A program made the translations under genes and the position numbers. The notes beneath the pieces were generated by a model, which saw only the letters and a list, made by a program, of their open reading frames with translations, did no database searches and was not told the origin of the DNA. Shown here piece by piece: positions 2,747-38,252 of a stretch of 40,925 nt of DNA. Origin of the DNA: a virus (lineage: Duplodnaviria; Heunggongvirae; Uroviricota; Caudoviricetes); the IMG/VR virus record IMGVR_UViG_2671180437_000016, positions 1-40,925 of that record; one strand, 5' to 3'. Numbering within the stretch: position 1 is the first letter of the stretch; every line of letters starts with the position of its first letter.

Positions 2747-2795
2747 GAATACCTCTCTTGGTTGCAGTGCGGCGCACGTGGCGCCGCGGTGGTGG

Positions 2796-3818
2796 TTACT
2801 CGAATTCTGGACGCATATCGTTAAGCGTCATCATGAATTTTTGGTGATATTCATCACCGAGCTTTTCAGCCATGGTGTTAATTTCATTTTCAGCGCGCTT
2901 GAACATCGTTTTTGCATCTTCAGCAGATGGATCCAGGCTATTAAGTATCGCGATGATATATTCTCGAGCTTCTTCTCGTTCTGAATCTGAAATTGGCGAC
3001 AGGTGTTGACGCTCATCGTCAACTACGGAATATTCACCAGTGATAACAGCTGCGTTATCTTGGCTAAGTCCAGCTTCAGCGCGCTCATCCATAACAACAG
3101 CCTTCTGCATTTCAATAGAAACAGGAAGATATTTGAACAGTCGGCGAATTACTGTTTTTTTAGCCATCTCATCGAAGTGATCAACCCATGGGCCACTGCT
3201 ACCGGCTTTGCTCAGTGCACGAACTTTCTCAACGTCTGCCCGGCTCATAACTTCAAATTGGACTCCGCCATCTTTCAGTCGTGCAACGGCGTAAACGTGC
3301 GTTAATTCTCCGCGGTCACCTGTTTCGCAAGGTAAATGCTCGAGCGTTTCTTCCAGGCCGTATGAGTAGCTGAATTTGTCGTTTGTATGTACGGTACGAG
3401 CCGAGATACTCAGGATCTGCCCAGAGCGGCGGGCAAGGTCAATCATTCCGCGATAGCCGATAATCAGCTGTGCTTCTGTAGATACGGTTTCCCATCTTCC
3501 ATTTACTTTCTGGCGTTTGTCGAACGGTATCAGGTAAGCGTGTCCAAGAGCTCCGCCTGGTTCAAGACCCAATTGGGCACATTGCATAATTGCCCCCAGG
3601 AAGCTGGCTTGGTCGCATGATGCAAGTTTTGGAACCTTTCTGATCTCTGTGGTTGCTATGCGCGCCAGACGGTCTGCTGTCATGTGCTTTGGAAGTGCCA
3701 AAGCCATCTGAGCTTTAATTTTTGGGTCTGCCAGAAGTCCGGCCAGAGTTGTTGGTTTCTCATTATGATGTGCAACTTGGTTACCGGTAGCCGCTGCCTT
3801 AAGTGCATTGATAGACAT
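2796..3818 (-). CDS. recT: RecT-family ssDNA annealing recombinase
   Basis: 340 aa; RecT-like central region 'AYLIPFDKRQKVNGRWETVSTEAQLIIGYRGMIDLARRSG'; immediately downstream of exonuclease gene as in RecET/YqaJ-RecT pairs. Confidence 0.85.
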   Translation of the reverse strand: MSINALKAAATGNQVAHHNEKPTTLAGLLADPKIKAQMALALPKHMTADRLARIATTEIRKVPKLASCDQASFLGAIMQCAQLGLEPGGALGHAYLIPFDKRQKVNGRWETVSTEAQLIIGYRGMIDLARRSGQILSISARTVHTNDKFSYSYGLEETLEHLPCETGDRGELTHVYAVARLKDGGVQFEVMSRADVEKVRALSKAGSSGPWVDHFDEMAKKTVIRRLFKYLPVSIEMQKAVVMDERAEAGLSQDNAAVITGEYSVVDDERQHLSPISDSEREEAREYIIAILNSLDPSAEDAKTMFKRAENEINTMAEKLGDEYHQKFMMTLNDMRPEFE

Positions 3819-3827
3819 TTTTTCTCC

Positions 3828-4727
3828 TTACTTCATTCTGAAGACGCGTTGTGTCGTTGTTGTTTTGAATTTTTCGAATAACTCAGGGTGTACTGACTGG
3901 AATAGCTTCTGGTCGAATCTGTTGCTGATCTGAGATTTCCATGTGCAGAGCGGCTTTCCGTCCAGGGTCAGGACTGAGTGCTCTTGCATGTACATCTTCA
4001 GCTTCTCTTCTGATATAGCTATTTCTTCTTCCAGTGATTTTCTGCGTGATTTCATGTCTCGTAGATCGTTGAATAGTGCGAGTGCCTTTCCGTCAGCCTC
4101 GATACTTGTCCCGGCATCTTTCTCAAACATCAGCGATACATCGCTTACGCTGGTAGCTTCCGGCGGGTTAAGATTTTTCACTCGGTCCCAGAAAGCGATT
4201 TCTTTTTCTAAGATCGCCTGGATAGTTTCTTCATCACGCTCAACCCGATAGATTCGGAAGTCGTCGCCACCGATAAGCACACCGAAAACGCATACCTGTT
4301 TGTTTGTAACCATCAACCCGTGCATGGCCTGGGCCGTGTAATGCACAGGAATTGCATCTGTCTGGATTTCTCCCCATTCTTTGGCTTTGAACGGACTAAC
4401 TGTTTTGATCTCAATGTTCTCGCCTGACGCTGCTTCTGCATCGATCTCAGCTGCAATAAAATCGTAATCACGGTGGATATAGCGGTTTCCGCGATGAACG
4501 ATTTCCATCCCTGTTTCCTCAGAAAGCAGGTCTATTACGTATGGCTCCATACGCTGGCCACGCGTGAAAACTTTCTGCTTGCTTGGGTCTACTGGTTTGA
4601 CACGTGGCTGGACCTTATCCAGATAAACCTCAAGCGGGGTGCGCCATGGGCTAATTCCAAGAATCCCTGCAACATCGCTTCCTCCGATGTATTTTGTTCT
4701 ATCCATGATTCCAGCGTTCCGCATCAT
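3828..4727 (-). CDS. YqaJ-like viral recombinase exonuclease (PD-(D/E)xK, lambda Exo-like)
   Basis: 299 aa; N-terminal 'RTKYIGGSDVAGILGISPWRTPLEVY' is the YqaJ signature; partner of RecT. Confidence 0.85.
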   Translation of the reverse strand: MMRNAGIMDRTKYIGGSDVAGILGISPWRTPLEVYLDKVQPRVKPVDPSKQKVFTRGQRMEPYVIDLLSEETGMEIVHRGNRYIHRDYDFIAAEIDAEAASGENIEIKTVSPFKAKEWGEIQTDAIPVHYTAQAMHGLMVTNKQVCVFGVLIGGDDFRIYRVERDEETIQAILEKEIAFWDRVKNLNPPEATSVSDVSLMFEKDAGTSIEADGKALALFNDLRDMKSRRKSLEEEIAISEEKLKMYMQEHSVLTLDGKPLCTWKSQISNRFDQKLFQSVHPELFEKFKTTTTQRVFRMK

Positions 4728-5038
4728 GCCGCGTCCCTCTGCCCATCAAGCTGATCCGCCAGATCCCAGCGCGCTATAATTGCCATTGCCTCGCGCCGGT
4801 AGGCATCCATCAGTTCTTCGAACTCAGGGCTGTCTTTAGCAGCCTCCAGCACTTCCTGACGAACGCCTTTGCCTGTTACAACGTCGAAAGTTGAGGACAG
4901 TTGATGAAGTCGGATGCTCTCAATCAGTTCAACTTGTCGGTCATATAGCTGTTCTGACAGGCGGTAGTCCTTGTCGAATGCCAGCATGATTTTTTGAAGA
5001 TTTTTCTGCTGATTAACGTTCATTATCAGCCCTCCCAT
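4724..5038 (-). CDS. Hypothetical early protein
   Basis: 104-aa ORF overlapping exonuclease start (ATGA-type overlap); no recognisable domain. Confidence 0.5.
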   Translation of the reverse strand: MGGLIMNVNQQKNLQKIMLAFDKDYRLSEQLYDRQVELIESIRLHQLSSTFDVVTGKGVRQEVLEAAKDSPEFEELMDAYRREAMAIIARWDLADQLDGQRDAA

Positions 5039-5178
5039 ATCTCGTTATCGTTGGCTACATCGCGAGCTTCTTTGCTGACGAAAGCCCACTTAATGCCTTC
5101 CTGTAAGGTGCGGAACTTCCAGCTCATGAATCCGCATGCAGTAACGCAGTACCAACCGTTGATGATTTTCCACTGCAT
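5026..5178 (-). CDS. Small hypothetical protein (50 aa), first gene of early-left operon
   Basis: ATG at 5178, stop overlaps next gene start; below ORF-track size cutoff; lies directly downstream of operator-bearing promoter region. Confidence 0.3.
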   Translation of the reverse strand: MQWKIINGWYCVTACGFMSWKFRTLQEGIKWAFVSKEARDVANDNEIWEG

Positions 5179-5210
5179 AACTTGTTACCTCGGTCTGTTA
5201 CCTCAGTCTG

Positions 5211-5225
5211 TTACCGTTGAGGTAA
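5211..5225. promoter_or_regulatory. Operator-like palindrome TTACC-GTTGA-GGTAA (OL-type site)
   Basis: Perfect TTACC-N5-GGTAA inverted repeat between repressor 3' end and early-left operon; preceded by tandem 13-bp repeats GTTACCTC(G/A)GTCT at 5184-5209. Confidence 0.6.
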
Positions 5226-5272
5226 TAATTATGCTTATTTGGTTTGGTGTCAATAGATATGAGTTAAAAAAA

Positions 5273-5287
5273 TTACCCGTAAGGTAA
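5273..5287. promoter_or_regulatory. Operator-like palindrome TTACC-CGTAA-GGTAA
   Basis: Perfect TTACC-N5-GGTAA; identical 15-mer recurs at 33500-33514. Confidence 0.6.
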
Positions 5288-5299
5288 TCTATCTGGCAA

Positions 5300-5322
5300 T
5301 AAAAAAGCCGCCATGAGGCGGC
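5300..5322 (-). terminator. Rho-independent terminator after repressor gene
   Basis: Stem GCCGCC/GGCGGC with ATGA loop; run of A on plus strand (U-run on minus) immediately 3' of repressor stop. Confidence 0.6.
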
Positions 5323-5344
5323 TTACTTACTGAAAAATATAGTT

Positions 5345-5929
5345 TTATTGTTTGCTTTTTTCGTTCTGGTTGATGACAAATTCAATGTAACTTTCGATCT
5401 TTGCTTTCTCGGTTTCGGGTAACAATGCGTAGCGCGAGCGGTCATAGTTGATAGTCGCAGGGTCGTGCGGGTGAATCAGTAATTCATAGCCGTGACGCCC
5501 GAATGCGGATGCAACATTCTCCAGGGTGGAAATGGAAACGCTGACCTCATTGTTTAACAGGCGACTGATTGTCACCTGGGCGACGCCGGATGCGCGGTGA
5601 AGTTTTCCCTGCGTTGAAAGGTCGCGGCTTTCGCTCATCCAGCGTTCCAGGTTGTGAGCCGCCAGCTGACCAATGTCGCTTGGGCCGACAGGCTGAAAAC
5701 CTTCCTGAGAAAGCGAGCGATCGATATCAAGCCAGTTACGGGGTTTATTGGCGGCAGCTTCAATTTTTCGCGCAACCTGGTCGCCGATAACCTTCTTGCC
5801 AAGAGCCCAGCGGTTTACCAGATTTGCCTGAGTTCCAAGTTTTTCTGCCATCCGCGTCTGAACACCATTGAATTCACGGTCGATCAAGTCGTTGAGATTT
5901 TGCCTGCGGACGTCCTGGATACTTTTCAT
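5345..5929 (-). CDS. Prophage repressor (CI-like, two HTH regions, no recognisable S24 autocleavage domain)
   Basis: 194 aa, divergent from Cro-like gene across an operator-rich spacer; HTH-like segments 'MAEKLGTQANLVNRWALGKK' and 'ASGVAQVTISRLLNNEVSVSISTLENVA'; no Ala-Gly/Ser...Lys peptidase motif seen. Confidence 0.7.
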   Translation of the reverse strand: MKSIQDVRRQNLNDLIDREFNGVQTRMAEKLGTQANLVNRWALGKKVIGDQVARKIEAAANKPRNWLDIDRSLSQEGFQPVGPSDIGQLAAHNLERWMSESRDLSTQGKLHRASGVAQVTISRLLNNEVSVSISTLENVASAFGRHGYELLIHPHDPATINYDRSRYALLPETEKAKIESYIEFVINQNEKSKQ

Positions 5930-5984: not shown

Positions 5985-6047
5985 TTACCCAACAGGTAAA
6001 TGCACCTCATAGGTAACTATCCTTGATTTTTGTTACCTTATGGGTGA
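5985..6047. promoter_or_regulatory. Immunity-region operator cluster (three TTACC-N5-GGTAA-type sites) with divergent promoters
   Basis: Sites at 5985-5999 (TTACCCAACAGGTAA), 6002-6016 (GCACCTCATAGGTAA), 6033-6047 (TTACCTTATGGGTGA) between repressor start (5929) and Cro-like start (6084). Confidence 0.65.
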
Positions 6048-6083
6048 ATATTTATTATCTGAAATAAATATCAGGCAATAGCT

Positions 6084-6314
6084 ATGAGCGATAACGGACA
6101 TTTCGATTTCAAAAAGCACTGGCTTGCACTTACTCCGGATGAGCGTGAAGCCTTCGCACAGGAAGCCGGAACGACGAGTCACTATATCCAGACTCACTTA
6201 ACAGGTAAGCGCAAGATGCCAGGTAAGGTATTGATGAATGGGCTTTTTAAAGCCTGTAAAACAAGACAATGGCTGCGCTCAAAAGCAGAACTGGCATACT
6301 TCTTCTACTCATGA
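6084..6314 (+). CDS. Cro-like HTH regulator
   Basis: 76 aa, divergent from repressor; 'EAFAQEAGTTSHYIQTHLTGKRKMPGKVL' resembles Cro/YdaS-type HTH. Confidence 0.65.
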   Translation: MSDNGHFDFKKHWLALTPDEREAFAQEAGTTSHYIQTHLTGKRKMPGKVLMNGLFKACKTRQWLRSKAELAYFFYS

Positions 6315-6336
6315 TATCCAGCTACAACCCTCTGTA

Positions 6337-6358
6337 GACCGCCACCCGGCGGTCTTTT
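6337..6358 (+). terminator. Rho-independent terminator after Cro-like gene
   Basis: Stem GACCGCC/GGCGGTC, loop ACCC, followed by TTTT. Confidence 0.6.
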
Positions 6359-6369
6359 CATATCTATTC

Positions 6370-6384
6370 GTACCTCAAAGGTAA
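6370..6384. promoter_or_regulatory. Operator-like palindrome GTACC-TCAAA-GGTAA
   Basis: One-mismatch member of the TTACC-N5-GGTAA family, followed by AACC-N6-GGTT inverted repeat and T-run (6390-6413). Confidence 0.5.
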
Positions 6385-6464
6385 TAAAAAACCAAATCTG
6401 GTTGATCTTTTTTTTGTGTCAGCACAAAATAACCGTAATCCCAATACTAATGACAGGGCTTACC

Positions 6465-6665
6465 ATGGAAATCATTACACGTATTGATGCCGCAAAGCGC
6501 GGACTTAAACGCTACTACACCGGAAAAACATGTAAGCACGGACATGACAGTGAACGCTGGGTTTACAACGGACACTGTGTTGAGTGCACCATGGAATCAA
6601 ACCGTCGCATCAGGGCAGAGATTAAGCAGATCATGATTAATTCCTCCCCACAACATTCAAGCTGA
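6465..6665 (+). CDS. Small Cys/His-rich (zinc-finger-like) protein in the cII position
   Basis: 66 aa from internal ATG of track ORF 6402..6665; 'CKHGHDSERWVYNGHCVEC'; function not recognisable. Confidence 0.4.
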   Translation: MEIITRIDAAKRGLKRYYTGKTCKHGHDSERWVYNGHCVECTMESNRRIRAEIKQIMINSSPQHSS

Positions 6666-6680
6666 TAGCGGAGATTAATC

Positions 6681-7496
6681 ATGAGCAGACATGCAACAGA
6701 TTGGGCCTGGGAGACAGATCCAGGTAGCTCGTCATTAAAGCTCATACTGCTCTCGATGGCTGACAGAGCCGATGAATATAACCTCTGCTACCCCAGCATA
6801 GAACGCCTCGTTAAAGACACTTGCCTGAATAAAAAAACCGTACAGGCCGGGCTTATATCGCTCATGAAAATGGGGCTTATTTCAGATACCGGAGAGAGAA
6901 AGGGTGCGACGAAAAGAGTGCGGGTTTTCTCTCTTAATATAACCAAAAACGGGAACATTAAAGGCAACCAGGAAGGGGAGAATGAACCCGAAAACGGTAA
7001 TGTTCCCGAAAACGGGAATATACCCAAAAACGGGATGTTGAATGATCCCAAAAACGGGATGTTGAATGATCCCAAAAACGGGATCCAGAACCAGTCATAT
7101 AACCAGTCATTTAACCAAGAGAGGGAGAGCAGGACAAAAACCGGGGATTCTGTGCCTCATGACCCCGGCGCAAACAACGCCGTGATGAATAACTTTGTTC
7201 CTCATGGTGGGCCAGGGCAATTAGGCAAATTTGTCATGCATGAACAATGGCAGCCATCAGATGACTTTCTTCGGAAAAGCTCATTGCAGGGAATCTACCT
7301 GGACAGTCTGCCAACGGCACAGGAACTTGCAGAGTTCAGAATTTACTGGATGGCTGAGGGTAAGGCATACCATCAGGCACAGTGGGAGCAGAAGCTGGCA
7401 AGGAGGCTGCAGATTAGCAGACAGAAGCAATCAACATTACCTGATAACAACGTTCCGCACTGGAACAGTCCTGAAGCATGGGAGGATTTCTTGTGA
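6681..7496 (+). CDS. Replication initiator (lambda O-like, N-terminal winged-helix) containing internal iterons
   Basis: 271 aa; N-terminal 'LKLILLSMADRADEYNLCYPSIERLVKDTCLNKKTVQAGLISLMKMGLIS'; repetitive 'ENGNVPENGNIPKNGMLNDPKNGMLNDPKNG' encoded by DNA direct repeats. Confidence 0.75.
   Translation: MSRHATDWAWETDPGSSSLKLILLSMADRADEYNLCYPSIERLVKDTCLNKKTVQAGLISLMKMGLISDTGERKGATKRVRVFSLNITKNGNIKGNQEGENEPENGNVPENGNIPKNGMLNDPKNGMLNDPKNGIQNQSYNQSFNQERESRTKTGDSVPHDPGANNAVMNNFVPHGGPGQLGKFVMHEQWQPSDDFLRKSSLQGIYLDSLPTAQELAEFRIYWMAEGKAYHQAQWEQKLARRLQISRQKQSTLPDNNVPHWNSPEAWEDFL
6987..7082. repeat. Iteron-like direct repeats (putative phage origin of replication) inside initiator gene
   Basis: Five copies of CCC(G/A)AAAACGG(G/T) starting at 6987, 7005, 7023, 7047, 7071; 24-bp unit CCCAAAAACGGGATGTTGAATGAT exactly duplicated; followed by AACCAGTCAT x2 (7089-7110). 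Confidence 0.65.
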
Positions 7497-15603: not shown

Positions 15604-15680
15604 TGGCGTGGCATGCAGGATTCGAACCTGCGACCAACCGCTTAGAAGGCGGTTGCTCTGTCCAACTGAGCTAATGCCAC
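15604..15680 (-). tRNA. tRNA-Arg (anticodon UCU)
   Basis: 77-nt cloverleaf read on minus strand: acceptor GTGGCAT/ATGCCAC, D-arm GCTC...GAGC, anticodon stem ACCGC/GCGGT with loop CTTCTAA (anticodon TCT), T-arm GCAGG-TTCGAAT-CCTGC, discriminator G + CCA. Confidence 0.85.
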
Positions 15681-29611: not shown

Positions 29612-32086
29612 ATGAGACAGGAATGTATACAAGCGGTCCAGCAGGCGGCGCAGCGCACGTTAACGGCGCGAGAAATACAGAACATTGAAGACCGCATTTA
29701 TCGAAATATGCGCTCTATTGCTCGTGATGACCCGATGTCGTGGAGACAACTTTCCGAATCAGAGCGGCTATATCGTGCAGCACAATTGGCATCTGAAGAA
29801 TTACAGCGAGAAGCGGCATTAAATAAACGTCGTGTGGCCCTCACTATAGCCGCACGTCAGAGATTGGATAAATTTATCAATAGCTATCAAGGGGCTGATG
29901 GGAAACTTGGCGCTCTTAACCGTACTATTGCTTTTAATGCAGACGGTAAATCGAATTTCCTCTCTGTTGAGTCCAGAACAAAAGCCACTCGTGATTATGC
30001 ATTGAGTCAATTGCAAGAGGCATTTGAAGCAGTTGATCCTCGCTTTTTTGGCCTGTTTGAAGATGAAGCTGGCGTGCGTGACCTGGTATATGAAATGCGA
30101 GGGCAAAATACTGGCAATGCTAAAGCAAGAAAAGGTGCTAAGGCGTGGAGAGAAGTGACAGATCTACTGCGCCGCCGGTTTAATGATGCTGGTGGGGACA
30201 TTGGCTATCTCGAAAACTGGGGGATCCCTCAACATCATTCTATGGAAAAGGTTGGGGCGGTATCAAAGGATAAGTGGGTTAGCGATGTTATAGGTAAGCT
30301 GGATCGCAAATATTATATCCGAGCCGATGGACAACTGATGAACGATGCCGAGTTGTCTGCATTTCTTGGAGAGGCTTATAACACGATCGCTACTGGTGGG
30401 CTGAATAAGCTTACTGATACCGGAATGCGAATTTCCGGCGCACGTGCTAACCGTGGTAATGCATCACGACAGATACATTTCAAAGATGCAGATTCCTATC
30501 TGCAATATCAGCAACTTTATGGCGATCGCTCTCTATGGGAAATCATGGTCGGTCACCTGGAAGGTATCAGTAAAGATATTGCACTGGTGGAAACATATGG
30601 CCCAAACCCCGATCATGTTTTCCGCTCTCTTCTTGATCAGGTGAAGGCAGAAACGGCAACAGCTAACCCGAGCAAAACCGGTAAAGTCGAGCGGCTGGCG
30701 AACAACACAGAGAATCTGTACAACTTTATTTCCGGAAAGACACAGCCTGTAGCGAATCCGCACATCGCGCGATGGTCTGACAATATCCGCAACTGGCTGG
30801 TTGCCAGCAGACTCGGATCCGCGTTGCTGTCATCGTTCTCTGATCTTGGAACCATGTATCTGTCTGCGAAGGTTACCAACCTTCCAATGAACCAGTTATT
30901 TCGCAACCAGCTTGAAGCTATGGACCCAACGAACCGTACTGAGCTTGCGCGGGCGCGCCGCGCTGGCCTGGCGATGGAATCTCTACTTGGCAGCGTTAAC
31001 CGCTGGGCGATGGATAATATGGGGCCGTCTGTGTCTCGTTGGGCGGCAACGGCGGTAATGCGTGCCAGTGGGCTTACAGCATGGTCAGATGCGCACAAGC
31101 GCGCCTATGGCGTAACCATGATGGGAAGCCTGGGAGAAGTAGTGTCACGGACACCAGACCTTCGTAGCCTCGATGACTCTGATTTTCGTATCCTGAAAAG
31201 TAAAGGGATTACTGACACAGACTGGAGCGTATGGAAGCTGGCGCAACAGGAGGACTGGGGGAACGGTAATAATACGATGCTGACACCGGAAAGCATTATG
31301 CGTATCCCTGATTCAGCAGTTAAACATCTTGGTGAGCCTGAACGCGTGAAATTTGAGGCAATGCGTAAACTGCTCGGTGCCGTAACTGAAGAAGTTGATA
31401 TGGCTGTTATTACACCGGGCGCACGTGAGCAGATGTTCGTAGGGTCTGGTCTTCAGCGTGGAACATGGAAAGGTGAATTAACGAGAAGTGTTTTCCTGTT
31501 TAAATCGTTCCCTATCTCGGTTGTTATGCGTCACTGGTCACGCGCTATGGGTATGCCGTCTGCTGGTGGGCGTGCAGCATATATAGCAACGTTTTTAGCA
31601 AGCACAACCATGCTTGGTGCTCTTTCCATGCAGATTACTGATCTTATTAATGGGAGAAATCCAAAGGAAATGACCGGTGACCACATGGTTAAATTCTGGA
31701 TAAATGCATTTTTAAAAGGTGGCGGGGCTGGGTTGTACGGTGATTTTCTTTTCTCTGACCACACTAGGTACGGGAGCGGCGCGCTGGCGTCGATGCTTGG
31801 CCCGGTAGCTGGTCTGGTTGATGACGTAGTGAAGATAGCTCAGGGCATACCGCTAAATGCTGTGGAAGGGAAGAGTGAGCAGACTGGTGGTGATCTGGTT
31901 AAGCTGGGGAAGGGGCTGATGCCAGGTGCGAATCTCTGGTACTTGAAGGCGGCTCTCGATCATATGATCTTTAACCAGATGCAGGAGTATTTTTCACCAG
32001 GCTATTTGCGTAAAATGGAGCAACGTTCGAAGAAAGAGTTTAACCAGACATACTGGTGGCGACCTCAGGATGTTACTCCGCAATAA
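29612..32086 (+). CDS. Internal virion/ejection protein (large)
   Basis: 824 aa; last gene of contiguous virion block. Confidence 0.5.
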   Translation: MRQECIQAVQQAAQRTLTAREIQNIEDRIYRNMRSIARDDPMSWRQLSESERLYRAAQLASEELQREAALNKRRVALTIAARQRLDKFINSYQGADGKLGALNRTIAFNADGKSNFLSVESRTKATRDYALSQLQEAFEAVDPRFFGLFEDEAGVRDLVYEMRGQNTGNAKARKGAKAWREVTDLLRRRFNDAGGDIGYLENWGIPQHHSMEKVGAVSKDKWVSDVIGKLDRKYYIRADGQLMNDAELSAFLGEAYNTIATGGLNKLTDTGMRISGARANRGNASRQIHFKDADSYLQYQQLYGDRSLWEIMVGHLEGISKDIALVETYGPNPDHVFRSLLDQVKAETATANPSKTGKVERLANNTENLYNFISGKTQPVANPHIARWSDNIRNWLVASRLGSALLSSFSDLGTMYLSAKVTNLPMNQLFRNQLEAMDPTNRTELARARRAGLAMESLLGSVNRWAMDNMGPSVSRWAATAVMRASGLTAWSDAHKRAYGVTMMGSLGEVVSRTPDLRSLDDSDFRILKSKGITDTDWSVWKLAQQEDWGNGNNTMLTPESIMRIPDSAVKHLGEPERVKFEAMRKLLGAVTEEVDMAVITPGAREQMFVGSGLQRGTWKGELTRSVFLFKSFPISVVMRHWSRAMGMPSAGGRAAYIATFLASTTMLGALSMQITDLINGRNPKEMTGDHMVKFWINAFLKGGGAGLYGDFLFSDHTRYGSGALASMLGPVAGLVDDVVKIAQGIPLNAVEGKSEQTGGDLVKLGKGLMPGANLWYLKAALDHMIFNQMQEYFSPGYLRKMEQRSKKEFNQTYWWRPQDVTPQ

Positions 32087-32095
32087 GGAACAACA

Positions 32096-32509
32096 ATGAA
32101 GGAATTATTGCTGTTATCGGTATTTTTGATATCCGCTTGCTCGACATCCTATGATGTTTATGACGGTGTTGATAAGGCATATTGCGACAAAGTTAAAATG
32201 GATTTTTCTCTTGCCAAGACGGCGAAGGATAGTTGTATTGATCACTACGTCAAGACTTATACCAAGCCAGCATCATCGGCATCTGATATTGCTGAAGGTG
32301 CTGTGTTTGAGTGTAACAAGGTGATATCCATCGCAGCGAGTTCTTCATACGATGCTGCTGTATGTGCAATGGCTGAAAGAAACGGCATGTCAGTGCAAAA
32401 AGTTAATAGCATGATAAACAGTAATGACGAAGCCAAAATAAGAACTGATATCAGCTCGGTGAAAAAAGATGCCATGAACAGAGTTGTAAAATATCAGTCA
32501 TCTTTATAA
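32096..32509 (+). CDS. Predicted lipoprotein (cargo; candidate superinfection-exclusion factor)
   Basis: 137 aa; signal peptide with lipobox 'LISAC'; SD AAGGAA; immediately after ejection-protein genes; followed by palindrome and terminator. Confidence 0.6.
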   Translation: MKELLLLSVFLISACSTSYDVYDGVDKAYCDKVKMDFSLAKTAKDSCIDHYVKTYTKPASSASDIAEGAVFECNKVISIAASSSYDAAVCAMAERNGMSVQKVNSMINSNDEAKIRTDISSVKKDAMNRVVKYQSSL

Positions 32510-32511
32510 GT

Positions 32512-32525
32512 CGTGACATGTCACA
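32512..32525. promoter_or_regulatory. 14-bp near-palindrome CGTGACATGTCACA (copy 3, inverted relative to copy 1)
   Basis: Exact reverse complement of 12285-12298; core 32513-32524. Confidence 0.5.
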
Positions 32526-32549
32526 GGCCGCAAAAGCGGCCTTGTTTTT
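32526..32549 (+). terminator. Rho-independent terminator after lipoprotein gene
   Basis: Stem GGCCGC/GCGGCC, loop AAAA, followed by TTGTTTTT. Confidence 0.6.
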
Positions 32550-32709
32550 AACGAATGCCACCGCCGCCAGGGCGGGAATCTGCAGAACGCCCACCGCAGC
32601 GGGAGCCGTCAGCGGCAGTATCGCTGTCGTGCTGGCAACGACCGGCAAAGGCCTGAGTTGAAGCTACCAGAGACAACAAAACGAACAGTGCAGCAAATGC
32701 TTTTTTCAT
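32548..32709 (-). CDS. Small secreted Cys-containing peptide (53 aa precursor), hypothetical
   Basis: Internal ATG (32709) of 77-aa track ORF; 'MKKAFAALFVLLSLVASTQAFA' signal peptide then about 31-aa Gly/Arg/Asp-rich region with two Cys; weak SD. Confidence 0.3.
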   Translation of the reverse strand: MKKAFAALFVLLSLVASTQAFAGRCQHDSDTAADGSRCGGRSADSRPGGGGIR

Positions 32710-32781
32710 TGTGAAATTTCCATCTATAAGCCACCTCAATGTGGCGTCAATGAGTGTAGCACTGACTTTTGTTTCGTCCAC

Positions 32782-32802
32782 AAAAAAGCCCGCGTTGCGG
32801 GC
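32782..32802 (-). terminator. Rho-independent terminator after orphan gene
   Basis: Stem GCCCGC/GCGGGC with plus-strand A-run (minus-strand U-run) immediately 3' of stop at 32808. Confidence 0.55.
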
Positions 32803-32807
32803 TTCTA

Positions 32808-33440
32808 TTAATGCAGTTTATCTTTGCTTATAACCAGTAGTCTGTGGGTATGCACATCTTTATCACTGCCCCAACAGAAATCAGCCCACTGGCTATAGAA
32901 ATCATCCCATGATGTCATGAAGCTAAGAGGTCTATCTTCTTCAGAGCCATCTGAAACGTATACATTATATCCTGGGGTGTTTATAGCCCAAGAAATCATT
33001 CTTTCCCAGAATCTTCTCCCATCGATTGTTTGTTGCTCATCAGATACAACGATCGCATATTGCTCTAGGAAGAACTGAAAAAAAATCTGAGGCAAACCAT
33101 GAACAGCACGGTCATGAATAACATTAGGCGTACGCCATACCATGATCTGCGTACATGTTCTTTTGGCTTCGACGATATCTTCCCGAAAGATTAACTTAAC
33201 CGCATACACCGTTTCTGGAGTATCGCTGGTAGTAATCATTCTGTAATGATCGCCATTACAAGATTTTACAAGGCGATAACCATAAGGTGTTGTGAATCCC
33301 GGAAGAACGAAATCAACCACACCTTTCGCTAAGTAGCTTTCGGTGTGACTAGTGTTCTTCTCAGACATGTTCAGTTTTCTGTCGAAATCTGCTTCTGGGA
33401 TAATGTATGGCATCGCTTTTCTTGTTGTATTTGTTTTCAT
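32808..33440 (-). CDS. Orphan cargo protein of unknown function (210 aa)
   Basis: Strong SD GGGAGGA; AT-rich gene with own operator (33500-33514) and own terminator; no motif recognised. Confidence 0.6.
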   Translation of the reverse strand: MKTNTTRKAMPYIIPEADFDRKLNMSEKNTSHTESYLAKGVVDFVLPGFTTPYGYRLVKSCNGDHYRMITTSDTPETVYAVKLIFREDIVEAKRTCTQIMVWRTPNVIHDRAVHGLPQIFFQFFLEQYAIVVSDEQQTIDGRRFWERMISWAINTPGYNVYVSDGSEEDRPLSFMTSWDDFYSQWADFCWGSDKDVHTHRLLVISKDKLH

Positions 33441-33499
33441 TTCGTCCTCCCATGTTTGGCTACAGGACGCGTTTTGAAGGGAAGATTAAAAACGCTTTC

Positions 33500-33514
33500 T
33501 TACCCGTAAGGTAA
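33500..33514. promoter_or_regulatory. Operator-like palindrome TTACC-CGTAA-GGTAA
   Basis: Identical 15-mer to 5273-5287; about 60 nt upstream of orphan gene start. Confidence 0.55.
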
Positions 33515-33580
33515 TATTACGCGAATCTACATCACATCGCCAATGATTATTTTAAAGGCACATCCCTGTGCCGCCGCCCG

Positions 33581-34267
33581 TCAGAAGAACCCTGCTTTGT
33601 CGTTGATATACTCCGCGTGGGTCTGGATATCACGCAGGCATTTGCTCACACCGACGATGTAGCAGAACATGGTGGTCAGCTCCGCCGCCGCGCCCGATAC
33701 GTCGTGCCCGTCTTCCTGTAACTGGTTCAGCAGATTCATCAGCAGTGAGTTCTCCGTCAGGCCGAGAACACCAGACGGCGAGTGAATCAGACTGCGGTAG
33801 CCGGGCTTTAGTGGGGCGCTGTAGGTTTTGTTCTCTATCTTCATTGCCTGCATCACTGCTGATGCTGTGGCGTTGGCTACCTGGTCGGCAACCATCTTTA
33901 TGCGTTCTTCTTGCGGGAGCGAGTTTTTAATGTAACTTCCGGTGCGGCGGATCTGAGGAAGAACCTCACCTGTAACCCATTTACGAAAGCGGTATGGGAT
34001 AGTGCCTGGTGTCACCGCATCGCGGCAGCGGAGGATCAGTGTGTAGAGGCCTGACTCGTTGATAATATTGGTTTCGCCTTGACGGCCTAAGTTAAATTTA
34101 GCCCTTTCATCATCATCAAGAGATTTTATTGACATAGTGGGGTTTGTCAGTTGAAGAGCTTTAATAACGTCTTTGGCAACAAACCAAGGATTTCCATCAA
34201 TAACAATGGCTCGAATGGTTGCTTCTGATTCAAAATGAAAAACAGATGGGGTTACGTTAGCAGTCAT
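33581..34267 (-). CDS. Antirepressor (BRO-N domain N-terminus, Ant-like C-terminus)
   Basis: Start at MTANVTPSVF (ATG 34267, SD AAAGGTGA); 'VFHFESEATIRAIVIDGNPWFVAKDVIKALQ' is a BRO-N signature; C-terminus homologous to 35413..35670 product. Confidence 0.7.
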   Translation of the reverse strand: MTANVTPSVFHFESEATIRAIVIDGNPWFVAKDVIKALQLTNPTMSIKSLDDDERAKFNLGRQGETNIINESGLYTLILRCRDAVTPGTIPYRFRKWVTGEVLPQIRRTGSYIKNSLPQEERIKMVADQVANATASAVMQAMKIENKTYSAPLKPGYRSLIHSPSGVLGLTENSLLMNLLNQLQEDGHDVSGAAAELTTMFCYIVGVSKCLRDIQTHAEYINDKAGFF

Positions 34268-34533
34268 AGTGATCACCTTTGTAGTTAGGTTAATCACCAC
34301 TACCGACGCCAATCGGTTGGTGGTGAACTGTGCAGGGTTGGCGTAACCGGCTACAAAGGACCCGGCGCACCTTTCGGTGCCCCCACACAGCCCACCATAG
34401 AATAGGTGCGCTTTACACATAAAAAAACCGCTTATGCGGCATATGTGCCCCTGTAGTAATCCGGGACGCCAATCCCGGCACTGGATTTTGCCAGTACCCG
34501 ATTACTATGGCACAAGAGGAGTGCAATGTAAAT

Positions 34534-34548
34534 TTACCGCAAAGGTAA
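34534..34548. promoter_or_regulatory. Operator-like palindrome TTACC-GCAAA-GGTAA
   Basis: Perfect site in 394-bp divergent spacer; followed by CAACC-N6-GGTTG inverted repeat (34575-34590). Confidence 0.55.
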
Positions 34549-34661: not shown

Positions 34662-35390
34662 ATGGAAGTTTTCTGGATAGTTGTTGGTGTGGTTGCGGTG
34701 ATTATTTACGTTATCAACCAGAACAAGACTAAGATCTCTGATCGTACGGTCGTTAATCATAACAAAACGATAAAGACCGAAGATGGGGAGATAACGATTA
34801 ATCGTACACAGGTTATAGAACACACCTCTACTCAGTTTCAAAAAACTGGAGGTAATGCGCCTAATATTTCCGCACCTCCTGCTTATGATAGTGCGGTAAT
34901 CCAGACATATTATAAACAGCAGGAGTTAGCAAAAGAGAGGCAACTGATTCAGCCAAAGCCGTTTACAGCTGAGCTTCCACCTGGAGTGTCAACGCGTCCG
35001 GCATATCATGGAAGATTCCCTGGTGATGACATATCGTCTCAGTCATCTAAAAAAGCACCTCAGGCAGTATCAGAGCCAGCAAGAATACCTTCTGTATCGC
35101 CGCCAAAAGAAGAATCAGCTAACAGAGTTTCAAGTGGTAGCAAGCAGTGCTTGCGATGCAGAATAAACCTACCATATGAAAAATTCAGGAAATCGTCAAA
35201 AAATCCAGATGGATTGACTAAGTGGTGTGCAAGGTGTCTCGATGGCCCAAAGAATACACGCCATATGAAGTGGTGCCCAATTTGTAATGTCCGCAGAAAA
35301 CGAACAAGCTTTTACCCTAATAATCAAAATGCGGATGGCTTAATGGCATGGTGCAAAACGTGCTGGGACGAGCACAAAGCGAAACGATAG
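34662..35390 (+). CDS. Membrane-anchored protein with four C-terminal CxxC motifs (zinc-ribbon-like), unknown function
   Basis: 242 aa; N-terminal TM helix 'VFWIVVGVVAVIIYVI'; C-terminal 'CLRC','WCARC','WCPIC','WCKTC' with internal repeat 'DGL(T/M)(K/A)WC'; SD GAGGAA. Confidence 0.6.
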   Translation: MEVFWIVVGVVAVIIYVINQNKTKISDRTVVNHNKTIKTEDGEITINRTQVIEHTSTQFQKTGGNAPNISAPPAYDSAVIQTYYKQQELAKERQLIQPKPFTAELPPGVSTRPAYHGRFPGDDISSQSSKKAPQAVSEPARIPSVSPPKEESANRVSSGSKQCLRCRINLPYEKFRKSSKNPDGLTKWCARCLDGPKNTRHMKWCPICNVRRKRTSFYPNNQNADGLMAWCKTCWDEHKAKR

Positions 35391-35414
35391 GCCGCTCTTG
35401 CGGCCTTTAAATTT
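35390..35414. terminator. Bidirectional terminator between convergent genes
   Basis: Stem GGCCGC/GCGGCC, loop TCTT, followed by TTTAAATTT. Confidence 0.5.
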
Positions 35415-35670
35415 ACCGGGTTTGTTTTCGTAATTGTTCGGCACAATAGTCGAGATGTGTTTGCAGATCCTGCATAGACATCTGTGAGCTGGTGACATAG
35501 TTAATCAGTGCAGTCAGTTCGGCAAGTGGGCCATCGACATTAAATCCATCCTTATCGAGATCCCGGAGTAATTTCATCAAGTGCGATCCCTCCACCAGTG
35601 ACCTGACGCCTCCCGGCGTGTGAATCCTTTCGGTAAATCCGTCTTCCAGTGGATAGTGATACTGCTGCAT
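35413..35670 (-). CDS. Small antirepressor-like protein under a LexA box (candidate SOS-induced antirepressor)
   Basis: 85 aa from ATG 35670 (SD GGAGAAG; track ORF uses TTG at 35688); 'RIHTPGGVRSLVEGSHLMKLLRDLDKDGFNVDGPLAELTALINYV...DLQTH' aligns with C-terminus of 33581..34267 product; LexA box 20 nt upstream. Confidence 0.6.
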   Translation of the reverse strand: MQQYHYPLEDGFTERIHTPGGVRSLVEGSHLMKLLRDLDKDGFNVDGPLAELTALINYVTSSQMSMQDLQTHLDYCAEQLRKQTR

Positions 35671-35689
35671 CTTATCTTCTCCATGCAAT

Positions 35690-37742: not shown

Positions 37743-37847
37743 TTTCGTTAAGAATTATCAGATCAAGTTTAATCCACATATGGTTTATTGTGTATGATGA
37801 ACTAACCAACTAAGGGGATTCTTTATGCACATTAAACGGTGTTTTTT

Positions 37848-38252
37848 ATGTCAGTTCAGCTAACCAGTGAGTCTTTAAATCAGTGGCTTAGTGCGAGTTC
37901 TCTTGCTGCGGTGATAGCAGGGGTTCCTCCAGAGGTGGCTTTGGGAGCTTTGGCTGGGGCGGTAATTTTTGTTACCTCAGCCATCGAGTATCCCATTCAT
38001 CGCCGGGTTCTCCTGTCTATGCTCAGCTTCCTCTGCGGCCTTCTCTTTTACAAACCTACAGCATCCATCCTTATCGGTGTAGCCAGCCTGATCCCTACCA
38101 TCACGCAGGACTCTTTCGAGAAAGGGATCGTCTTCTCTGCTGGCGCATTTGTGTCGTCAATTGTCGCTGTGCGAATTGGTATATGGCTTTATCACCGTTC
38201 CGATAATCCACGCGAGTTAATTCCGGGGAGAAAAGACGATGGTAACGCATGA
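37848..38252 (+). CDS. Holin-like membrane protein (about 4 predicted TM segments)
   Basis: Hydrophobic 134-aa protein at head of lysis cassette; start ambiguous (GTG 37839 or ATG 37848); preceded by 12-codon uORF with strong SD. Confidence 0.5.
   Translation: MSVQLTSESLNQWLSASSLAAVIAGVPPEVALGALAGAVIFVTSAIEYPIHRRVLLSMLSFLCGLLFYKPTASILIGVASLIPTITQDSFEKGIVFSAGAFVSSIVAVRIGIWLYHRSDNPRELIPGRKDDGNA

Follow-up and report, generated by a model that had tools for sequence, protein, structure and literature searches.

Positions 32,096 to 33,514 of IMG/VR virus record IMGVR_UViG_2671180437_000016 (Caudoviricetes) were analyzed together with the rest of that record, a stretch of 40,925 nucleotides hereafter called the window. 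A preliminary description had treated these positions as one cargo island after the ejection-protein genes, holding a lipoprotein gene, a small signal-peptide open reading frame (ORF) and an AT-rich 210-amino-acid (aa) orphan. As judged by sequence comparison, the region is the variable zone of an epsilon15/phiV10-like temperate podophage (a Uetakevirus prophage), in which three separate accessory modules are placed between the ejection-protein operon and the c4/IsrK-ant switch. In kind it is an ordinary phage accessory-gene hotspot, and its genes are real, conserved and uncharacterized. Our main result is that the 210-aa orphan is reclassified into a very large uncharacterized GNAT-like phage family with a defined regulatory context. 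The features of the locus are as follows.

29612–32086, plus strand: final large gene in the late operon, encoding an 824-aa gp17-like virion/ejection protein (homologous to phiV10 p20; phrog_684 'virion structural protein', E = 0).
32096–32509, plus strand: predicted outer-membrane lipoprotein, 137 aa as precursor (lipobox ISAC with Cys15, followed by Ser at +2; four more Cys are conserved).
32525–32542, plus strand: intrinsic terminator of the late virion operon (7-bp stem with 6 GC pairs, then TTGTTTTT; on the minus strand, a hairpin without a U-tract).
32548–32709, minus strand: 53-aa precursor of a secreted 31-aa peptide with two cysteines, GRCQHDSDTAADGSRCGGRSADSRPGGGGIR (phrog_14503; within a Uetakevirus-conserved segment).
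32778–32806, minus strand: intrinsic terminator after the 210-aa gene (UUUUUU preceded by a hairpin of −15.1 kcal/mol, z = −3.0).
32808–33440, minus strand: 210-aa cytoplasmic protein (phrog_1349; divergent GNAT-like predicted fold), in the cassette 32804–33499.
33445–33451, minus strand: Shine-Dalgarno (SD) sequence GGGAGGA, 4 nt ahead of the ATG of the 210-aa gene (GGAGG conserved in homologues).
33500–33514, no strand assigned: operator palindrome TTACCCGTAAGGTAA at the 210-aa gene.
33514–33543, minus strand: putative weak σ70 promoter of the 210-aa gene, read manually (−35 TTGGCG at 33538–33543, 18-nt spacer, −10 TAATAT at 33514–33519).
33581–34267, minus strand: Bro-N antirepressor gene ant (Pfam Bro-N 7.8e-20, phrog_130), with its probable start.
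34316–34402, minus strand: C4 antisense RNA (Rfam RF01695, 79.5 bits, above the gathering score).
34421–34497, minus strand: IsrK (Rfam RF01394, 73.5 bits, above the gathering score).
34534–34548, no strand assigned: operator at the promoter of the isrK-c4-ant unit (palindrome and promoter scans).

The 4.5 kb around the region aligned piecewise, at 90–96% identity, with Escherichia phages TL-2011b, phiV10, phiv142-3 and HEMP4 and with other Uetakevirus (epsilon15-like) podophages, and blastn against TL-2011b, phiV10 and phiv142-3 placed sharp breakpoints at 32089/32090, 32511/32512, 32803 and 33500. Homology stopped at the first of these, just past the stop codon of the 824-aa gene, and picked up at the second. 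The conserved segment that begins there spans the peptide gene together with the two terminators flanking it, the late one and that of the 210-aa gene; homology then stopped again at 32803 and restarted exactly at 33500, which is the first base of the operator. Because a conserved segment lies between the breakpoints, the region resolves into two replaceable slots, 32090–32511 and 32804–33499, rather than one island. The placement of an accessory variable region directly after the ejection/virion genes was correct, the 137-aa ORF beginning 9 nt past the 824-aa stop. Slot 1, which holds the lipoprotein gene in the window, encodes small inner-membrane proteins in relatives, one of 46 aa with two transmembrane segments in phiV10 and one of 98–118 aa with several in phiv142-3 and E. 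coli 4/1-1. Slot 2, which holds the 210-aa gene, is occupied in TL-2011b by a YafO-type toxin gene after a small ORF, located at 2794–3493 of locus L001 and behind an equivalent operator (3554), and in phiv142-3 by two small ORFs. These are natural 'allele swaps' in otherwise near-identical phages, with two precisely bounded slots trading envelope proteins, toxin–antitoxin pairs and the 210-aa protein. Of 5,426 complete E. coli genomes, 93 (1.7%, among them APEC O1 and an ST131 strain) carried the 210-aa gene and 22 the lipoprotein gene; none had the exact three-gene combination of the window.

The 210-aa protein matched phrog_1349 over its full length (E = 2.5e-113), and all 76 of the relatives sampled matched this family too. 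We found 63 homologues of about 210 aa across the Enterobacterales (Escherichia, Enterobacter, Klebsiella, Raoultella, Serratia, Pectobacterium, Dickeya, Yersinia, Photorhabdus, Xenorhabdus, Providencia and Plesiomonas), and a profile search of 1.84 billion representatives returned 914 family clusters at 50% identity. The gene does form an AT-rich single-gene cassette, as described earlier (40.8% GC compared with 49% for the whole window; the lipoprotein gene has 39.1% and the peptide gene 57%), but with this many relatives it is no orphan, and the statement that its product has no recognizable motif gives way to phrog_1349 membership and a GNAT-like predicted fold. Full-text literature searches returned no characterization of the family.

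Homologues lie between the tail chaperone and an Arc/P22-antirepressor pair in Serratia siphophages, between Rz and the small terminase in Enterobacter lambdoid prophages and phage LLS, and next to P1-type baseplate/tail-fibre genes (gp6-like, gp16, R) in Citrobacter P1-like elements. A distant branch of the family has two tandem paralogues (hhalign probability 99.7), divergent beside a DUF3289 gene (positions 851–2148 of locus L011 and 4186–5480 of locus L012), and on the Xenorhabdus chromosome the gene sits between ppc and metF with no phage genes within 6 kb on either side (6001–6639 of loci L016/L017). In IMG/VR, the Pfam families found most often among 111 neighbours in 29 distinct viral contexts were Arc (5) and Bro-N (4), and the same contexts also yielded P22_AR_N (2), KilA-N (1), ORF6N (1) and ParA-type ATPase models (3 each). 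Relatives were also found on viral contigs of 112–607 kb. Pfam searches of the 76 relatives detected sporadic fusions only (MqsA zinc-ribbon, weak SRA-like, DUF5397) and no GNAT model. Of the fusions in the family, one adds the N-terminal half of the MqsA antitoxin, a zinc-ribbon (E 3e-20), one an SRA-like domain (weak, E 0.002) and one an uncharacterized N-terminal region of 300 aa.

Structure prediction, proposed in the preliminary description as a check on the 210-aa and 137-aa proteins, gave a GNAT-like fold for the former and a helical bundle for the latter. The AlphaFold2 model of the 210-aa protein, built from an alignment of 42 sequences, had a predicted local distance difference test (pLDDT) score of 81.7 and matched GNAT structures almost exclusively, in keeping with the characteristic alpha/beta fold of that superfamily. 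Foldseek searches of viral models returned uncharacterized phage proteins and 'NAT_SF' proteins (E 1e-10 to 1e-6), one of the former coming from Agrobacterium phage Atu_ph07, a jumbo phage. At the sequence level, no GNAT-clan profile in Pfam or NCBIfam matched the window protein, no Pfam GNAT profile matched the 76 relatives, and a search of PDB sequences with the 210-aa protein gave only noise. A regular-expression search showed that the coenzyme A (CoA) pyrophosphate loop of motif A, Q/R-x-x-G-x-G/A, is absent from the window protein and from 69 of the 76 relatives. The conserved loop of the family is instead S-D-x-x-Q-T-x-x-G-x-x-F-W, and the residues conserved family-wide are N29, Y79, Q98, W102, R103, D134, Q137, T138, G141, F144, W145, Y161, W190 and G191. 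We file the protein as GNAT-like by its predicted fold only, short of a demonstrated acetyltransferase. A Mom-like DNA modifier was rejected, hhalign of Mu Mom with the family profile giving a probability of 0.2 and Mom matching PF25680 at 2.4e-75 where the 210-aa protein has no match. Nor does the locus fit a GNAT toxin–antitoxin system of the AtaT/TacT/KacT type: no small ribbon-helix-helix (RHH)/DUF1778 antitoxin gene is adjacent, and the cassette holds a single ORF. The homologous gene likewise stands alone in the Serratia, Enterobacter and Xenorhabdus contexts.

The strong SD sequence, own operator and own terminator previously ascribed to the 210-aa gene are all present. The terminator was missed by the pattern scanner because an extension of its stem absorbs the U-run. 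The last base of the putative −10 box is the first base of the 33500–33514 operator, a geometry repeated at the 8378 site, and a TTGGCT...TACTAT element homologous to the putative promoter lies upstream of the LLS and Enterobacter homologues. In almost all homologues the otherwise divergent 5′ untranslated region (33441–33490 in the window; loci L004–L061) has a CTCC/GTCC element 10–15 nt upstream of GGAGG. A hairpin sequestering the SD sequence was considered and dropped, since RNAalifold found no consensus structure and the SD-pairing probability was 0.72 compared with 0.67 in shuffles. With boundaries at 32804/33499 and a confirmed terminator, the gene has the anatomy of a moron cassette, its promoter being only a weak match.

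The operator is one of a set. When one mismatch was allowed, TTACC-N5-GGTAA occurred 16 times in the window, where 0.56 copies were expected and no shuffle contained as many (positions 5211, 5273, 5985, 6033, 6370, 8316, 8378, 12376, 12394, 15249, 16003, 33500, 34534, 34627, 35747 and 37728), so that the TTACC operator described earlier at 33500–33514 is indeed there and has 15 companions. Copies lie on both sides of an HTH_3 repressor-like gene (5345–5929, minus strand) and also before the DUF1064, terminase, tailspike, holin, 242-aa and ant units. Because this is the pattern expected of a main repressor, we infer that the palindrome is the operator of the main, CI-like repressor. Several operators stand directly after terminators, and since the 33500 site sits at a mosaic junction, operators may double as recombination joints between modules.

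The neighbouring antirepressor unit has an operator at its own promoter. Its ORF was called mechanically at 279 aa and is probably over-extended, with the true start at Met52 (about 34267), because the C4 and IsrK genes occupy 34316–34497 and relatives are annotated as 227–231 aa. A near-threshold c4-a1b1 target element was also seen in the 5′ part of the mechanical ORF. Since Rfam places C4 and IsrK upstream of ant, the unit is an immI switch of the P1/Gifsy type, with ant under RNA control. The 210-aa gene follows immediately downstream of this unit, which is the lytic switch under the tightest control, in the same orientation and with an operator of its own.

The same operator recurs far from this backbone. 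Lambdoid phage LLS (PQ299149.1) has a single exact palindrome in 42.9 kb (42053–42067), and it stands 73 nt ahead of the homologue of the 210-aa gene. The three Enterobacter prophage loci L008–L010, of 14.6 kb, likewise have one exact palindrome, at 6914–6928, 73 nt upstream of theirs; the upstream sequence in both is alignable with the promoter region of the window. Because the palindrome is solitary there and the upstream sequence alignable, the promoter–operator seems to have travelled with the gene into phages without other copies, where the homologue is presumably constitutive unless an epsilon15-like repressor is supplied in trans. An operator intrinsic to the gene family was considered and rejected, as the palindrome was found in the E. 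coli Uetakevirus set, the LLS/Enterobacter set and one 70%-identical homologue and was missing or degenerate in most others. We see it rather as part of the Uetakevirus backbone that was exported on some occasions, and the orphan operator in lambdoid phages offers a concrete lead on regulatory elements moving with cargo.

Of the functions that can be proposed for the 210-aa protein, we rank first, tentatively and at rather less than an even chance, that of a lytic-phase effector; the balance with a defence function is close. The gene would be silent in a stable lysogen, because its promoter abuts the operator of the CI-like repressor, and would be turned on with the neighbouring antirepressor unit at induction or early in infection. 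The protein would then modify or sequester a host or immune component, serving host takeover or counter-defence as AcrVA5, Rac and Mom do; with the CoA pyrophosphate loop missing, its donor may be something other than acetyl-CoA. Counted in favour of a lytic-phase effector are the operator, the linkage to ant, the 112–607-kb contigs, the Atu_ph07 match, the GNAT-fold precedents and the lack of a PADLOC match. Other observations weigh against it. The putative promoter matches at 8 of 12 positions and falls under the threshold of the scanner, and binding of the palindrome by the HTH_3 protein is deduced from the placement of the sites only. Four facts fit a host-beneficial constitutive gene better: the copy in Xenorhabdus is solitary, the Rz–terminase slot of lambdoid phages is a classic moron slot in which the cognate repressor is absent, a YafO-type toxin gene with a small ORF occupies the same slot in TL-2011b, and the family includes tandem paralogues.

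The last four of these observations also speak for the strongest competitor, in which the protein is a single-gene anti-phage defence or superinfection-exclusion protein, as already put forward in the preliminary description, and is expressed from the prophage for the benefit of the lysogen. This function would further suit the moron hallmarks of the gene (low GC, own promoter region, own terminator), the classic moron or defence slots that it occupies in unrelated prophages, the orphan operator in LLS, with constitutive expression as its consequence, and the fusions that point to conflict systems (MqsA zinc-ribbon, weak SRA-like domain). By contrast, the comparison with a defence-system database that had been suggested yielded nothing: PADLOC-DB v2 (2023 library) gave no match at E ≤ 0.1 for the three proteins or their neighbours. 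The native promoter abuts a repressor operator, as at lytic units, and the resulting silence in the lysogen would run counter to the needs of a defence gene expressed from the prophage. Relatives reside on very large viral contigs and in Atu_ph07, and we recognize none of the sensor or effector domains that are typical of single-gene abortive-infection proteins. The earlier candidacy therefore keeps its moron features and its Xenorhabdus copy, but lacks a catalogued relative and has its promoter at a repressor operator; we consider it possible but doubtful.

An extended form of the lytic-phase effector, which we hold to be quite improbable, would have the 210-aa protein found a new class of GNAT-derived effectors that lack the acetyl-CoA loop, are freed by loss of the repressor and act through another donor or by binding to disable a function of the host or of a rival phage, with an epsilon15-like prophage regulating the homologue in an unrelated co-resident prophage. 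Such cross-talk is conceivable because the same palindrome and promoter-like stretch precede the lambdoid homologue. Very unlikely, in our estimate, is a GNAT-type detoxifying or immunity enzyme that acylates a small-molecule antibiotic, bacteriocin or toxin and thus provides host resistance that is not phage-directed: the tandem paralogues beside the DUF3289 gene resemble immunity-gene arrays and a solitary chromosomal copy exists, but the protein lacks the CoA-binding loop, NCBIfam and Pfam gave no match, their resistance families included, and the family is overwhelmingly phage-borne. We give as little credit to a non-catalytic GNAT-like scaffold acting in the antirepressor/immI circuitry, for instance by binding the repressor or antirepressor; the prominence of Arc and Bro-N among the neighbours, the position of the gene after the c4/IsrK-ant unit on the same strand, the family member that abuts Ant and Arc in Serratia phages and the missing catalytic loop would fit it, but immI regions are general hotspots for accessory genes, so that the association may be positional only, and many contexts (lambdoid Rz–terminase, P1-like, chromosomal) have neither Ant nor Arc.

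The analysis gives phrog_1349, until now unnamed, a fold class, conserved residues and a regulatory context, and shows it to span many phage types, in Enterobacterales and beyond. What was a 'hypothetical protein' can thereby be tested as a possible phage enzyme of offence or defence. No textbook view is changed, the functions of all three genes being inferred.

The occupant of slot 1 was correctly described as a lipoprotein gene. Its product begins with MKELLLLSVFLISAC, which fits the lipobox pattern [LVI][ASTVI][GAS]C of a lipoprotein signal peptide, and the lipid-acceptor Cys and the four other Cys are invariant in nine homologues; in a 54%-identical Cedecea homologue the lipobox reads L-S-G-C, compared with I-S-A-C in the window. 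Ser at +2 predicts sorting to the outer membrane by the established +2 rule. The model (pLDDT 86) is all-helical, a predicted helical hairpin bundle. The family is narrow (E. coli, Enterobacter, Citrobacter and Cedecea), and tblastn against 50,697 deposited phage records found no homologue. In every context examined, all of them Uetakevirus-like prophages, the gene starts 2–9 nt after the gp17-like gene of 824/848 aa, even at 54% identity. Palindrome and terminator scans revealed no operator between the 16003 and 33500 sites and no strong terminator between 16003 and 32525, the hairpin at 32525–32542 being the only strong terminator in 16.7 kb. Because of its fixed position, the lack of an intervening operator and the sole strong terminator directly after it, the lipoprotein gene reads as the last cistron of a late virion operon of about 16 kb.

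The protein would be exported, lipidated and sorted to the outer membrane, showing a disulfide-stabilized helical hairpin in the periplasm. Its most likely function is envelope-level exclusion or ejection interference, in which it would disturb the periplasmic DNA-ejection step of incoming related phages, or else guard progeny. This role is suggested because slot 1 always encodes a small envelope protein and because the layout mirrors the 16–sieA–immI–9 order of P22. The fold search contributed only nonspecific matches to generic helical hairpins (AcrA/EmrA/TolC, colicin coiled coils, BAR domains), and no lipoprotein exclusion factor was among the matches listed. A spanin role was set aside, as the holin gene is separate (37839–38252) and the protein is long, helical and cysteine-rich.

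Llp of T5 and Cor of phi80 are established precedents for phage lipoproteins that block receptors, and a blocker of this type, inactivating an outer-membrane protein receptor, would agree with an outer-membrane lipoprotein encoded beside virion genes. However, we found no similarity to Pfam or PHROG families of known function, those of Llp and Cor included, or to such families in phage records; phages of the epsilon15/phiV10 group bind O-antigen via the tailspike, and to our knowledge no protein receptor is known for phages of this group. The gene is moreover tied to the late operon, unlike a lysogenic-conversion gene. The precedent invoked in the preliminary description thus survives as a positional and functional analogy, with neither sequence similarity nor a listed exclusion-factor fold match behind it, and we regard a receptor blocker as unlikely.

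Between the two slots, the small signal-peptide ORF proved to be a real, conserved gene. Its product has a classical signal peptide (MKK..AFA|G) and is 100% identical in TL-2011b, phiv142-3, HEMP4 and EC.W1-9 and about 82–86% identical in Klebsiella phages. It has 57 homologues across the Enterobacterales, annotated as 'transmembrane anchored protein', probably a misnomer since the signal peptide is cleavable. In 14 homologues the signal part varies, whereas the mature core C-x-H-x-x-D-T-A-x-D-G-S-R-C-G-G-R-S-x-D-S-R-P-G-G is invariant or nearly so, which indicates selection on the secreted peptide of about 31 aa. The gene lies downstream of the terminator of the 210-aa gene and has upstream, by manual reading, a promoter-like TTGACG-16-TATAGA element without an operator. 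Because of this arrangement the peptide would be expected in the lysogen, as a constitutive product of its own putative promoter. A separate and remote possibility is that this invariant secreted peptide beside the c4/IsrK-ant switch is a phage-encoded extracellular signal.

On the upstream side of the region, the ORFs of 600 aa and 824 aa are phrog_1145 and phrog_684, conserved virion proteins of the Uetakevirus group. On the downstream side the order is Bro-N antirepressor, 242-aa ORF, 91-aa ORF and tailspike. The 242-aa ORF (34662–35390, plus strand) is divergent from ant, has its own operator (34627) and combines an N-terminal hydrophobic segment with C-terminal CxxC repeats, which show weak similarity to PHROGs of the endonuclease VII, Lar-like and HNH kinds and to Pfam Stc1. 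The 91-aa ORF (35413–35688, minus strand) encodes the C-terminal antirepressor domain once more, as a free-standing protein, with phrog_450 matching its residues 7–91 and residues 196–277 of Ant. TL-2011b, phiV10 and phiv142-3 each have a 258-nt ORF at this position, for which the phiV10 record gives a similarity to epsilon15 p19. Elsewhere in the window, a tRNA-Arg gene (anticodon TCT; 15604–15680, minus strand) lies between the terminase and portal regions.

Several known systems resemble parts of this locus. AcrVA5 is a GNAT-fold phage protein used against CRISPR. Precedents for phage offence proteins with a GNAT fold are also provided by Mom of Mu (PMC13219725, PMC7261163) and Rac of phiKMV (PMC7552054). 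Mom, Rac and AcrVA5 are all phage-encoded, of about 90–240 aa, with a GNAT-type fold, and are deployed during the lytic programme to counter host restriction, transcription or CRISPR, and the 210-aa protein is like them in predicted fold. Mom itself is marked by the PF25680 profile, with a helix-turn-helix-like insertion and the catalytic residues R111/S124, and the 210-aa protein shows no profile similarity to it.

In P22 the gene order is 16–sieA–mnt–arc–ant–9. Shared with the sieA/immI region of P22 is the succession from ejection genes to a small envelope protein, an antirepressor module and the tailspike. The window differs in that its envelope protein has no homology to SieA and is an outer-membrane lipoprotein tied to the late operon, and in that ant is controlled by c4/IsrK RNA rather than by Mnt/Arc. 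T5 Llp, phi80/N15 Cor and TP-J34 Ltp are phage lipoproteins acting at the envelope, as we propose for the lipoprotein of the window; Ltp is a helical protein of about 140 aa that blocks DNA injection.

The arrangement of C4 and IsrK directly upstream of a Bro-N ant gene, under an operator of the main repressor, is like that of P1/P7 immI (c4–icd–ant) and of Gifsy-1 IsrK–AnrP. This likeness concerns the neighbouring ant unit, the 210-aa gene having its own operator and promoter downstream of ant. With its low GC, own terminator, sharp boundaries and occurrence in unrelated phage backbones, the 210-aa cassette also resembles morons. Unlike classical morons, which are expressed from a repressed prophage, it carries the operator of the resident repressor, which argues against expression in the lysogen, and the pairing of palindrome and promoter-like stretch is preserved ahead of its homologue in lambdoid phages.

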